Position numbers and translations under genes: made by a program
In this document: in pieces, positions 19,773 through 28,832 of the stretch
How the letters are laid out: each line of letters starts with the position of its first letter
Numbering within the stretch: position 1 is the stretch's first letter
The notes under the pieces: model-generated
The model's database searches: none
What the model saw: only the letters and a program-made list of their open reading frames with translations
Told to the model about the DNA's origin: nothing
Assembly: GCF_000026545.1 (NCBI RefSeq)
Contig: NC_011601.1
DNA length: 64,000 nucleotides
Reading direction: 5' to 3' (one strand)
Source: Escherichia coli O127:H6 str. E2348/69
GTDB lineage: Bacteria; Pseudomonadota; Gammaproteobacteria; Enterobacterales; Enterobacteriaceae

Positions 19773-19828
19773 ACGATTGAACAATATAAAGAGGCCCAGC
19801 AACAGCCAGACCTCCCGTTAATTATACG

Positions 19829-20857
19829 TTATGCAGTAACGCCTTCCGGTATCAACGAAGCAATTTGCTTACGCCATTGCGCTTGCTCCTGTTCACCTTC
19901 TGTACGTTGACCATAAAGTTGCGCTATCTGCGTACCATCATGGGCAAACAATTCCAGACTGGTTACGTGACCATCGCTGGTCGGTTTACGGGTAACCCAG
20001 GCTTCAGCAATGCTCTCTTCTAATAGATGAAGGGTAAACGTCGGGTTGAAAATATTCAGCCAACCTTTCATTGGCACCACTTTTTCTACCACACCGGTGA
20101 AAATCTGTACGCAGCCACGGTTGCCAACAAACACCATGATTTCATTGCCATCCTGCTGTGCAGATTCAAGAATTTGCGCCAACGCACTGTTGGATACTTT
20201 GCAGGCCAAATCGTCTGCCACCAGATTGAACGCCTGTTGGCGCGTCAGGTTGTGGCGCTTGAGCAACGTAAAAAACTGATGAACGTCGGTCATCGCCCGC
20301 CACTCTTGCTCGACCACACTGGCATCGGCTCGCGTTTGAACAACTGGCGCATCAACGGCTTTTAACTCAAGCGGCGTATTCTCATCGGTGATAAACCGTG
20401 CCAGAAGCTCACTCCATGCCGCCATATCGGTATTGTCGGTGGCATAAACTTTTAGTAATGCATCGCCCTGATGATCAAAGAACTGAATACTCTGGCGTTC
20501 GCCACGAGCCGTGTTTTCTTTGATGTGGAAAACACTGGCCCATTGATTGAGAAACAGACGTAAATCCAGCGCGCGCGGATTGAGGATCAATCCGGCATGT
20601 CCGTTCAAATGCTGGTTTGTGAACGAGCCAACTTGCTCATGGACTGCATATTCATTACGACAAATACATTTGGTTTCACCAACGCTTTCCAGCGCCGCCA
20701 GAATTTCACGAATATCGCCGCGCATCCGCCACGCGTCGTGCGTGACGCGTGCAAATGCCAGTTCTGCTTCGCTGATATTCATTAAACCTGCGATGTCACG
20801 CGCGTACTTTCCGGGATTTTGTTCTTTTAACTCAAGCCAGCGTGTGTAGTGGTTCAT
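19829..20857 (-). CDS. chuS: Heme oxygenase / hemin-degrading protein ChuS (HemS family)
   Basis: 342-aa ORF with the duplicated HemS/ChuS fold, immediately downstream of chuA. Confidence 0.9.
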   Translation of the reverse strand: MNHYTRWLELKEQNPGKYARDIAGLMNISEAELAFARVTHDAWRMRGDIREILAALESVGETKCICRNEYAVHEQVGSFTNQHLNGHAGLILNPRALDLRLFLNQWASVFHIKENTARGERQSIQFFDHQGDALLKVYATDNTDMAAWSELLARFITDENTPLELKAVDAPVVQTRADASVVEQEWRAMTDVHQFFTLLKRHNLTRQQAFNLVADDLACKVSNSALAQILESAQQDGNEIMVFVGNRGCVQIFTGVVEKVVPMKGWLNIFNPTFTLHLLEESIAEAWVTRKPTSDGHVTSLELFAHDGTQIAQLYGQRTEGEQEQAQWRKQIASLIPEGVTA

Positions 20858-20881
20858 TGTCTCTCTTCCTTCCAGATAAAT

Positions 20882-20899
20882 GCCCCGAAATATCGGGGC
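20882..20899 (-). terminator. Hairpin between chuA and chuS (attenuator or partial terminator)
   Basis: gccccgaaatatcggggc inverted repeat. Confidence 0.35.
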
Positions 20900-20905
20900 A
20901 GATGA

Positions 20906-27021: not shown

Positions 27022-28014
27022 GTGCTCAAGGATTCACTCTCTTCCGCCAGGATCTTTATGGGGCTATCACTATTATTGCTCGCTCTGGTGCTGTTCAGTG
27101 CCAGTCAGGGAGCGTTAAAGATCAGTTTTGATGCCCTTTTTGATGAGGAATACCGCGATATCTGGCTCAATATTCGTCTACCACGGGTTTTGCTGGCGGT
27201 GCTGGTAGGTGCAGCGTTGGCAACCGCAGGGGTAATTATGCAGGGGCTTTTTCGCAACCCAATGGCTGACCCTGGATTACTTGGCGTCAGTAGCGGTTCT
27301 GCATTAATGGTTGGCGTTGCTATTGTGCTGCCCTTCTCCTTCCCAGTGGTGCTGGTGCTCTATGAGCAAATGGTGTTTGCCATTGCCGGAAGTTTAGTGG
27401 TCTGCACCATCATTTTTCTCATCACGCAGCGCCATCGCGATGGCAGCATGATGCAATTATTACTCGCCGGTATCGCCATCAATGCCCTGTGCGGCGCAGC
27501 GATCGGCATCCTGAGCTATATCGGCGATGAGCAGCAGCTACGACAACTCACATTGTGGATGATGGGCAATCTTGGACAGGCGCAATGGCCGACGTTATTG
27601 GTTGCCAGTTCATTCATCCTACCGGCCATTATCGCAACAACTTGTCTCGCCGGAACGCTGAATTTACTGCAGCTCGGTGATGAAGAAGCCCACTACCTCG
27701 GCGTGAACGTGAAGCGTAAACGCCAGCAATTACTGTTAGTGAGCTCACTGCTCGTTGGTGCTGCCGTATCGGTAAGCGGCATTATCGGCTTTATTGGCCT
27801 GGTGATCCCGCATCTGATTCGCATGACTACCGGGGCAAATCACCGCTGGCTAATCCCTTGTTCCGCCCTCGCCGGAGCCTGTTTATTGCTGATGGCAGAC
27901 ACGCTTGCCCGCACGCTGGTACAGCCAGCAGAAATGCCCGTGGGATTATTAACCAGCCTGCTTGGTGGCCCTTATTTTATGTGGTTGATTCTGCGCAACC
28001 GGAGGATCACATGA
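27022..28014 (+). CDS. chuU: Hemin ABC transporter permease ChuU (FecCD family)
   Basis: 330-aa polytopic ORF of the FecCD/BtuC permease family. Confidence 0.9.
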
Positions 28015-28781
28015 TCAGCGCCCAGAATCTGGTTTATAGCCTTCAGGGGCGGCGTCTGACTGATAATGTCTCGCTGACTTTTCCCGGTGGGGAAATTGTT
28101 GCCATCCTCGGCCCTAATGGTGCGGGAAAATCTACGCTGCTTCGCCAGCTAACCGGCTATCTTCAACCTGATAGCGGCGAATGTTGGTTGTTTAATAAGC
28201 CATTAAATGAATGGTCGATTACTGAACTGGCGAAACACCGGGCCGTGATGCGTCAAAATAGCCACATGGCGTTTCCATTCAGCGTACAAGAAGTTATCCA
28301 GATGGGGCGGCATCCGCATCGTACTGGTAATCAGGATAATGAAACAGCACAAATAATGGCGTTATGTGACTGTCAGGCGTTAGCAAACCGCGACTATCGG
28401 CAATTATCCGGTGGTGAACAACAGCGCGTGCAATTAGCGCGCCTGCTGGTGCAACTCTGGGAACCTACTCCCTCACCGAAATGGTTATTTCTTGATGAAC
28501 CAACTTCGGCGCTGGATATTCACCATCAGCAGCACTTGTTTCGTTTATTACGCCAGTTAGTTCACGAACGGCAGTTCAATGTTTGCTGCGTATTGCACGA
28601 TCTAAATCTTGCCGCGCGTTATGCAGACCGTGTTGTATTAATGCAAAAAGGAAAGGTTATCGCAAATGGTAAGCCGCAGGACGTATTGACACAGCAGGCG
28701 CTGACAATGCTCTACGGCGCGGATATTACCGTACTTAAAGATCCTGCCAACCATTCACCACTGATCGTCCTCGATCATTAA
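28011..28781 (+). CDS. chuV: Hemin ABC transporter ATP-binding protein ChuV (HmuV)
   Basis: 256 aa from [11 protein letters not shown]; Walker [10 protein letters not shown], signature LSGGEQQR, Walker B LFLDEP; ggagg SD; ATGA overlap with the chuU stop. The ORF track starts 51 codons upstream inside chuU. Confidence 0.92.
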
Positions 28782-28787
28782 AACCAA

Positions 28788-28812
28788 CAGGAGTACCGCC
28801 CTGGTACTCCTG
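28788..28812. terminator. Bidirectional terminator hairpin between chuV and yhiD
   Basis: caggagtacc-gccct-ggtactcctg inverted repeat. Confidence 0.6.
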
Positions 28813-28832
28813 CGAATAAATAACTATACAGA

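Follow-up and report, generated by a model that had tools for sequence, protein, structure and literature searches.

The chu heme-acquisition locus of Escherichia coli E2348/69: an intact, already described gene cluster in place of part of the dctR-yhiD spacer

Introduction

What lies between dctR and yhiD in Escherichia coli O127:H6 str. E2348/69, and how did it come to be there? In a K-12-like genome, these two genes are convergent neighbours, 41 bp apart. A stretch of 64,000 nucleotides of the E2348/69 chromosome (contig NC_011601.1 of assembly GCF_000026545.1), referred to here as the window, was analysed. From its letters alone, the original prediction had described a heme-uptake and heme-degradation island nested between dctR and yhiD, and its statement that the two genes are adjacent in K-12 was borne out. 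Heme acquisition by chu is acknowledged to contribute to virulence and fitness, and the phylotyping PCR is based on chuA. We investigated the genes, the regulatory region, the junctions, and the distribution of the locus.

Results

Gene content of the chu locus

The locus was chromosomal and was located between two genes of the acid fitness island (AFI), dctR (yhiF; 19242-19772, plus strand, RefSeq annotation) on the left and yhiD (28833-29480, minus strand, annotation and NCBIfam NF007431, 398 bits) on the right. The ORF list and the annotation of the E2348/69 RefSeq record, with which the stretch agreed at 100% identity, showed eight genes in a divergent arrangement, with chuS-chuA on one strand and chuT-W-X-Y-U-V on the other. 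The predicted identities and strands agreed with the annotation, and the predicted gaps to dctR (56 bp, 19773-19828) and to yhiD (51 bp, 28782-28832) were measured as such. The eight genes accounted for approximately 90% of the 9,054 bp of chu-specific DNA, and the remainder consisted of one 683-bp regulatory spacer and short gaps. All eight ORFs were full length, without internal stops, and their motifs were intact.

Each product was compared with protein families and solved structures. The two genes on the minus strand encode the heme-degrading protein and the receptor. ChuS (19829-20857), a cytoplasmic heme oxygenase according to its PDB match and RefSeq annotation, matched PDB 4cdp/1u9t over its full length with 763 bits, and His193 was present. 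ChuA (20906-22888), the TonB-dependent outer-membrane heme/hemoglobin receptor, matched the NCBIfam TonB-hemin family (TIGR01785; cut-off 317) with 588 bits, and PDB 9dhe and 3fhh (ShuA) with 1444 and 1427 bits. The motif check found His86 and His420 of the mature protein, which we take from the ShuA literature to be the heme-ligand histidines.

The remaining genes were on the plus strand. ChuT (23572-24486), the periplasmic heme-binding protein, matched PDB 2r7a (ShuT) with 539 bits over query residues 49-304. ChuW (HutW; 24506-25843), a radical-SAM methyltransferase of anaerobic heme degradation, gave 570 bits against NCBIfam TIGR04107 (cut-off 400) and carried the CxxxCxxC motif at Cys67. 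ChuX (HutX; 25856-26350), a cytoplasmic heme carrier, gave 210 bits against NCBIfam HutX (cut-off 110) and 357 bits against PDB 2ovi. ChuY (26350-26973), annotated in RefSeq as anaerobilin reductase, matched PDB 5guy and 5ffq over its full length with 440 bits, and the NCBIfam profile search gave no family match for it. ChuU (27022-28014), annotated as the heme ABC transporter permease, was of the BtuC/FecCD type (286 bits). ChuV (28011-28781), the heme ABC transporter ATPase, gave 396 bits against NCBIfam NF010068 (cut-off 261) and contained Walker A, LSGGE, and Walker B motifs; its start overlapped the chuU stop (ATGA). The PDB matches of ChuS, ChuA/ShuA, ShuT, ChuX, and ChuY were near-identical and spanned the full (mature) length. 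The NCBIfam scores of ChuA, ChuW, ChuX, and ChuV exceeded their curated cut-offs by a wide margin. As predicted, the set was complete, with a receptor, a binding protein, an ABC importer, and degradation enzymes.

A textbook signal peptide would result if chuT started further inside, at Met28. This alternative was rejected because Met28 is not conserved (it is Ala in O157), while the annotated start (ATG at 23572) and the reading frame were conserved in four of four lineages.

Regulatory region between chuA and chuT

Two Fur boxes were found in the spacer, each with 17 of 19 matches to the Fur consensus. One was located over the predicted chuA promoter (box 23179-23197; -35/-10 at 23217..23189, minus strand), and the other over the predicted chuT promoter (box 23530-23548; -35/-10 at 23512..23541, plus strand); both promoters were recognised from promoter-like hexamers. 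They were the only Fur-box matches in the 64 kb, where 0.01 matches were expected. An RNA thermometer of the FourU type was matched in the 5' UTR of chuA (22886-22917, minus strand), where it covers the ribosome-binding site. It belongs to Rfam RF02597, which is named for shuA/chuA, and its score of 60.1 bits exceeded the gathering score (58). The function of this thermometer is described in PMC9002310, which cites Kouse 2013. The same paper gives the length of the chuA 5' UTR as 291 nt (PMC9002310). On the minus strand, this corresponds to approximately 22889-23179, so that transcription would begin near 23179, a short way downstream of the -10 that was predicted. By analogy with the orthologues, this copy would be repressed by Fur and thermoregulated.

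The Fur boxes, promoters, and thermometer were the invariant blocks of the spacer across four lineages. The middle was variable, and there the O157 and CFT073 alleles differed from this copy by indels. A 53-aa ORF with a good Shine-Dalgarno sequence (23257-23418, plus strand) was rejected as a gene because L005 and L006 lack its ATG, O157 has a shifted frame, and conservation of the spacer is lowest in the part where it lies. A third promoter, for chuUV, has been reported (PMC9002310). Simple scans of the chuY-chuU gap found no Fur-like site (at least 13 of 19 matches) and no sigma-70-like site.

Junctions and the empty allele

The chu-specific DNA was delimited to 19774-28827 (±2 nt) by a three-way junction alignment and a junction listing across lineages. 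In the alignment, these 9,054 bp took the place of approximately 35 bp that the dctR-yhiD spacer has in K-12-type genomes. The predicted nesting held, with one refinement: part of the old spacer has been replaced, so the chu state is no clean insertion. Comparison of the junctions with K-12-like and chu-positive genomes revealed no target-site duplication, and the K-12-like genome was without chu.

All chu-positive lineages had identical junctions, including L005, L006, and L008, which are only approximately 90% identical. The K-12 spacer was homologous to the spacers of E. whittamii and E1V33, and none of 5,000 shuffles reached the score. This meant that the empty site was not a deletion scar. 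Residual homology of the K-12 spacer to chu junction DNA, as expected of a deletion or insertion scar, was also considered and was not significant. In the best case, 14 of 16 positions matched the chuS terminator in reverse complement (p ~0.03, one of eight tests), and no significant similarity was found between the K-12 spacer and chu-internal sequence.

The dctR gene was 97.7% identical to its K-12-like copy. Between O157, which carries chu, and the K-12-like genome, which has the empty site, the flanks were 99.5% and 99.1% identical, and this extended to within 190 nt and 54 nt of the junctions. This identity of more than 99% points to exchange by homologous recombination. The yhiD search gave no match in the representatives of E. 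albertii, E. fergusonii, E. marmotae, and E. ruysiae.

Divergence of the chu genes and that of the flanks were unequal in some lineages (L005, O157).

Hairpins and predicted terminators

A terminator scan found a hairpin downstream of chuS (19789-19816, minus strand) with a folding energy of -19.1 kcal/mol (z = -3.8), which none of 200 shuffles equalled, and it was conserved in L005, L006, and L008. A perfect 10-11 bp hairpin was located between the convergent chuV and yhiD (28787-28813). It folded with z = -3.5 on the minus strand and -5.4 on the plus strand and was conserved in L005, L006, and L010. On the minus strand, UUGGUUUU comes after this hairpin, making it a candidate terminator of yhiD; judged from these letters, it is likely to serve as such in chu-positive strains. 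The empty-site spacer contained no terminator hairpin and folded no better than shuffled sequence (z ~0). Two GC-rich hairpins were found inside the locus, one between chuA and chuS (20881-20900, minus strand; terminator scan, fold z = -3.4) and one in the chuY-chuU gap (26980-26998, plus strand), read directly as GGCGCGG-catat-CCGCGCC.

Distribution among genomes

A survey of 5,426 complete E. coli genomes was performed. The locus was present in approximately 2,236 of them (41%), and 3,179 had the empty site. In positive genomes it was always chromosomal, in a single copy, and at a single site; neither a second copy nor another site was found among the 5,426 genomes. No true plasmid carried chu in these genomes and 72,556 plasmid records, and two PLSDB matches that had suggested plasmid carriage were both 4.9-Mb chromosomes filed as plasmids. 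Incomplete loci were also observed. In L008, chuTWXYUV has been lost, and partial or IS-interrupted chu loci occurred in a few E. coli genomes.

Discussion

We very probably deal with the canonical chu (= shu) locus, intact and presumably functional by analogy, which was gained through one old replacement of the spacer and was then exchanged by homologous recombination. How the locus works has been established for orthologues, and for this copy we infer it, as we do the history of its arrival. Under iron limitation, Fur would dissociate from both of its boxes within the 683-bp divergent promoter region. The chuA-chuS genes would then be transcribed leftwards with a 291-nt leader, in which the FourU hairpin would hide the ribosome-binding site below 37 °C, and chuTWXY(UV) would be transcribed rightwards. 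ChuA, with energy from TonB, would bring heme across the outer membrane, ChuT would ferry it through the periplasm, and ChuUV would pump it into the cytoplasm. In the presence of oxygen, heme would be degraded by ChuS; without oxygen, it would be handled by the radical-SAM enzyme ChuW, the carrier ChuX, and the anaerobilin reductase ChuY. As for its arrival, a handful of outgroup genomes suggested a single old event in which approximately 35 bp of dctR-yhiD spacer gave way to 9,054 bp with what appear to be its own terminators at both ends. Occupied and empty alleles would have coexisted in Escherichia afterwards and would have been exchanged by homologous recombination via the conserved flanks. 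Machinery for site-specific mobility would have had no part in this spread.

Three other explanations were weighed against this one. The patchy distribution of chu (41% of complete genomes) and its association with pathogenic lineages might suggest that chu is a mobile genomic or pathogenicity island of the classical kind, with site-specific integration and an integrase, att site, or IS element that was overlooked. The scans argued against it, as the original prediction had expected for the integrase, tRNA, IS element, and flanking direct repeats. ARAGORN found no tRNA in the 64-kb window, flanking direct and inverted repeats at the junctions were limited to short matches at chance level, no integrase, transposase, or other mobility gene was annotated in the segment, and no IS element was present at the locus. 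The chu genes left no coding space for an integrase or IS element, the only sizeable spacer being regulatory and its 53-aa ORF not conserved. The G+C content of chu (50.2%) was close to that of the window (50.3%) and equal to the genome average, so it did not deviate in composition; the outlier was the surrounding AFI (45.9%). Together with the single site and the lack of true plasmid carriage in the survey, these results effectively refute a mobile island, to which we assign hardly any probability. The reduced locus of L008 and the partial or interrupted loci of a few E. coli genomes could be taken to mean that chu is a decayed, non-functional remnant in E2348/69 as well. This is just as improbable, given the intact ORFs and motifs, an identity of 99.3-99.5% to other B2 strains such as CFT073, and the preserved promoters, Fur boxes, and thermometer.

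It is somewhat less improbable, but still quite unlikely, that chu is ancestral in E. coli and was lost by simple deletion in A/B1/C, with the ancestral state preserved in E2348/69 and the deletion scar in K-12. The same site and the same junctions in lineages approximately 90% identical to E. coli indicated that chu is old, partial deletions do occur, and the chuA-positive phylogroups of Clermont phylotyping (B2, D, E, F) include early-branching ones. However, the empty site contains approximately 35 bp that are absent from chu-positive genomes and homologous to the E. whittamii/E1V33 spacer, and a deletion cannot recreate them. The loss would therefore need allelic replacement from a donor with the empty site, which is the mechanism of the replacement and recombination favoured here, with its direction reversed.

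Exchange of alleles through the flanks accounts best for the patchy distribution of chu, and this calls for caution in using the presence of chuA as a strictly vertical marker. The chances are about even that the presence or absence of chu between dctR and yhiD is an old Escherichia polymorphism, with one founding replacement, the ancestral spacer kept in A/B1/C, and alleles swapped by recombination. If this is true, what chuA shows as a phylotyping marker is an allele that recombines, and not simply a gain or loss that defines a clade. This view of chuA may already be implicit in the literature, as far as a non-exhaustive search could tell. The main value of the present analysis is a correct annotation: E2348/69, an EPEC strain of B2, carries the whole locus and is chu-positive, as predicted, with a complete, regulated heme-acquisition system. 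The added value is mechanistic, in that the locus lacks a mobility apparatus, partly replaces an old spacer, and seems to bring its own terminators for chuS and the neighbouring yhiD.

The eight-gene chu (shu) locus is intact, ordinary, and already described, and the prediction that it would be a known locus and not a new system agreed with both the comparisons and the literature. O157:H7, where it forms the heme-transport O-island inside the acid fitness island, and UPEC strain CFT073 had the same eight genes in the same order and strands, the same dctR/yhiD junctions, and the same Fur boxes and thermometer. Nucleotide identity over the whole 10.6 kb was 96.6% for O157 and 99.3% for CFT073, and the differences were allelic only. 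In Shigella dysenteriae type 1, the shu locus, a subject of Wyckoff et al. in 1998, reportedly consists of eight ORFs, occupies the same map position, and has near-identical junctions, and its solved proteins ShuA (3fhh) and ShuT (2r7a) were matched by ChuA and ChuT. The nesting of chu within the acid fitness island is also already published, with an AFI of 22-23 kb compared to 13-14 kb in K-12, in agreement with the layout in E2348/69 (PMC9144400; bioRxiv 10.1101/429480). More distant systems are found in other genera and at other loci. ChuS was homologous to HemS (2j0r, 506 bits) and ChuT to HmuT (3md9) of the Yersinia hem/hmu system (hemRSTUV), while ChuW and ChuX belonged to the HutW and HutX equivalog families of Vibrio cholerae hutWXZ. 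Unlike the Yersinia and Vibrio systems, chu joins transport and HemS-type degradation with HutW/X-type anaerobic degradation in one divergent cluster.

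Gene content of the chu locus

Large ORFs were found in the ORF map of 17.5-31 kb at the positions and strands of the original prediction, which had placed eight chu genes between dctR and yhiD. Among 5,426 complete E. coli genomes searched by megablast, a record of EPEC strain E2348/69 (NZ_CP059840.2) was 100% identical to 19000-29600, and its RefSeq annotation was converted to window positions. The annotation agreed with the ORF map, giving dctR (19242-19772, +), chuS (19829-20857, -), chuA (20906-22888, -), chuT (23572-24486, +; the annotated start was the conserved one), chuW/hutW (24506-25843, +), chuX/hutX (25856-26350, +), chuY (26350-26973, +), chuU (27022-28014, +), chuV (28011-28781, +) and yhiD (28833-29480, -). 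From these gene ends, the flanking gaps were 56 bp on the dctR side and 51 bp on the yhiD side, as had been proposed.

The chu identity of all eight genes was borne out by NCBIfam, solved-structure matches and annotation. NCBIfam scores were 588 bits for ChuA (TonB-hemin, curated cut-off 317), 570 for ChuW (TIGR04107, 400), 210 for ChuX (HutX, 110), 396 for ChuV (heme ABC ATPase family, 261) and 398 for YhiD (214). Near-identical, full-length matches to solved structures were obtained for ChuS (4cdp and 1u9t, 763 bits), ChuY (5guy and 5ffq, 440 bits) and ChuX (2ovi, 357 bits). ChuT (ShuT 2r7a, 539 bits) and ChuA (9dhe, 1444 bits; ShuA 3fhh, 1427 bits) were near-identical over the full mature length. 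None of the eight chu ORFs contained an internal stop. ChuW carried CxxxCxxC at Cys67, ChuS had His193, mature ChuA had His86 and His420, and the Walker A, LSGGE and Walker B motifs were kept in ChuV; from the residue roles described in the literature, these are the motifs to be expected in such proteins. ChuA is an outer-membrane receptor dependent on TonB, ChuT a periplasmic binding protein, ChuUV an ABC importer and ChuS an oxygen-dependent heme oxygenase, and the anaerobic roles belong to ChuW (radical SAM) and ChuY (anaerobilin reductase) (PMC9002310).

Regulatory regions

The chuA-chuT spacer was 683 bp long and AT-rich (37.5% G+C). The 19-bp Fur consensus, with at most three mismatches, matched only twice in the whole 64 kb (0.01 expected by chance), and both matches lay in this spacer. 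The predicted Fur box at 23179-23197 overlapped a sigma-70-like hexamer pair directed toward chuA (23217..23189, -), and that at 23530-23548 overlapped a pair directed toward chuT (23512..23541, +). The shuA/chuA thermoregulator (RF02597) was detected at 22886-22917 (-) above the Rfam gathering score. The published chuA leader length of 291 nt (PMC9002310) would place the transcription start at ~23179, immediately downstream of the predicted -10.

The spacer was aligned among the window, O157:H7 and two divergent lineages labelled E. coli (L005 and L006, only ~90% identical). Three blocks were invariant in these four lineages. One comprised the thermometer and the RBS, and the other two were the chuA and chuT promoters, each together with its Fur box. 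The spacer's middle part varied and contained indels; a 53-aa ORF there was rejected because it was not conserved. Although chuUV is described in the literature as an operon of its own (PMC9002310), the 48-bp chuY-chuU gap held a GC-rich hairpin (GGCGCGG-catat-CCGCGCC, 26980-26998) and nothing resembling a Fur site or a promoter.

Junctions of the chu segment

The junctions were mapped by three-way alignment and by listing them across lineages. In the K-12-like genome NZ_CP092702.1, dctR and yhiD were convergent neighbours 41 bp apart with no chu at the site, in line with the original prediction. Similarity to this empty site stopped one base past the dctR stop codon (19773) and returned, five bases short of the yhiD stop codon, at ACAGATTAGC (28828, ±2 nt). 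Because ~35 bp of the K-12-type spacer (TTTCAGGCTTACGGTGAGTCTGGCTACGCTGCCAC) had no counterpart in the window, 9,054 bp replace ~35 bp. On this alignment chu is a replacement rather than an insertion; together with the ancestral-type spacer at the empty site and the probable allelic exchange described below, this is the sole refinement over the known picture.

The predicted lack of an integrase, tRNA, IS element or direct repeats at the junctions also held. No tRNA was found anywhere in the 64-kb window, the repeat search gave only short, chance-level flanking matches, the eight genes occupied ~90% of the segment, and the junction alignment revealed no target-site duplication. The G+C content (chu, 50.2%; window, 50.3%; remaining acid fitness island (AFI), 45.9%) gave no hint of foreign origin.

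Both segment ends carried strong hairpins, after chuS (19789-19816, z = -3.8) and between chuV and yhiD (28787-28813, z = -3.5 and -5.4); another lay between chuA and chuS (z = -3.4). Since UUGGUUUU comes next after 28787-28813 on the minus strand, this hairpin probably terminates yhiD in chu-positive strains. Terminator scanning and folding found no significant structure in the empty-site spacer.

Distribution and origin of the two alleles

Among the 5,426 complete genomes, chuSA was present in 2,236 and chuT-V in 2,238, always single-copy and chromosomal, and 3,179 had an intact empty junction. Two chu matches in PLSDB (NZ_CP141089.1 and NZ_CP134663.1) were 4.9-Mb records, which are mislabelled chromosomes filed as plasmids. 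Only a handful of genomes had partial or IS-interrupted chu. Rare decayed loci were seen in HS-02, HH45 and 300444 (NZ_CP172818.1, NZ_CP116411.1, NZ_CM128586.1). In one, the match to the chuS-chuA query was confined to positions 1335-3060, covering most of chuA, and dctR was listed under it; another kept part of chuY plus chuU and chuV only; the third was interrupted by IS903B.

A YhiD scan of species-representative genomes returned five orthologous loci. L005 and L006 (~90% nucleotide identity) shared with the window both the site of the full chu locus and its junction sequences. These junctions, common to the chu-positive lineages, argue that the occupied allele goes back to a single founding event. 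The site was empty in E. whittamii (L007) and Escherichia sp. E1V33 (L009), with a 42-bp spacer. An empty site could be the scar of a chu deletion or old intergenic DNA. The K-12 spacer aligned with these outgroup spacers with a score of 11 versus -7 ± 3.5 for shuffles (0 of 5,000 reached 11), and the likeness persisted without the 7 nt also kept by chu-positive genomes. This similarity beyond chance indicates that the empty site is an ancestral-type spacer of old intergenic DNA, not a deletion scar.

Escherichia sp. MOD1-EC7003 (L008) retained chuS-chuA and lacked chuTWXYUV. At 5883-6531 of L008, an ERIC/IRU-like repeat lay in the chuA-chuT spacer, and a second, inverted partial copy abutted yhiD; these copies suggest a repeat-associated deletion. 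A single hint that the two alleles are related came from comparing 19773-19828 with the K-12-type spacer: the latter matched the reverse-complemented chuS terminator region at 14 of 16 positions, which was not significant (p ~0.03, one of eight tests).

The flanks of chu-positive O157:H7 and the empty K-12-like genome were 99.5% and 99.1% identical, the differences closest to the junctions being 190 nt and 54 nt away, and each differed by ~2% from the B2 window. These near-identical flanks show that alternative old alleles occur in closely related backgrounds. The divergence of chu relative to its flanks was uneven between lineages. Exchange of the occupied and empty alleles by homologous recombination through the flanks is probable, and would be the simplest explanation.

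Nearby and database observations

At 16297-17339, arsR and arsB were missing: dinQ (16297-16380) and the AgrB sRNA (16655-16739) were directly followed by arsC (16914-17339), versus dinQ-arsR-arsB-arsC in the K-12-like genome. arsC is here an orphan gene without regulator or efflux pump. Rfam placed the ES205 sRNA and GadY at 32589-32660 and 38440-38553, in the AFI downstream of chu, as expected for the AFI. An 8.6-kb contig of 'Flavobacterium paronense CECT 8460' (L010, NZ_JAUFQN010000010.1) was 97-98% identical to E. coli hdeA-hdeB-yhiD-chuV-chuU, almost certainly contamination of a public assembly.

Comparison with published knowledge

The observation in the original prediction was confirmed and its interpretation, a known locus rather than a new system, was supported; the finding is already known, since the chu locus, its regulation and its AFI position are all published. 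Wyckoff et al. are reported to have placed the shu locus in 1998 between the yhiF and yhiD sequences of K-12 and to have found nearly identical junctions in E. coli positive for shuA. chuA is a marker in Clermont phylotyping PCR (PMC4138120). PMC9144400 and bioRxiv 10.1101/429480 (the latter with reference to Carter et al. 2012) give an AFI of ~22-23 kb in O157:H7 versus 13-14 kb in K-12 and attribute the larger size to inserted heme-transport genes. The AFI of the window spanned ~18.5-41.2 kb, consistent with the published O157:H7 size.
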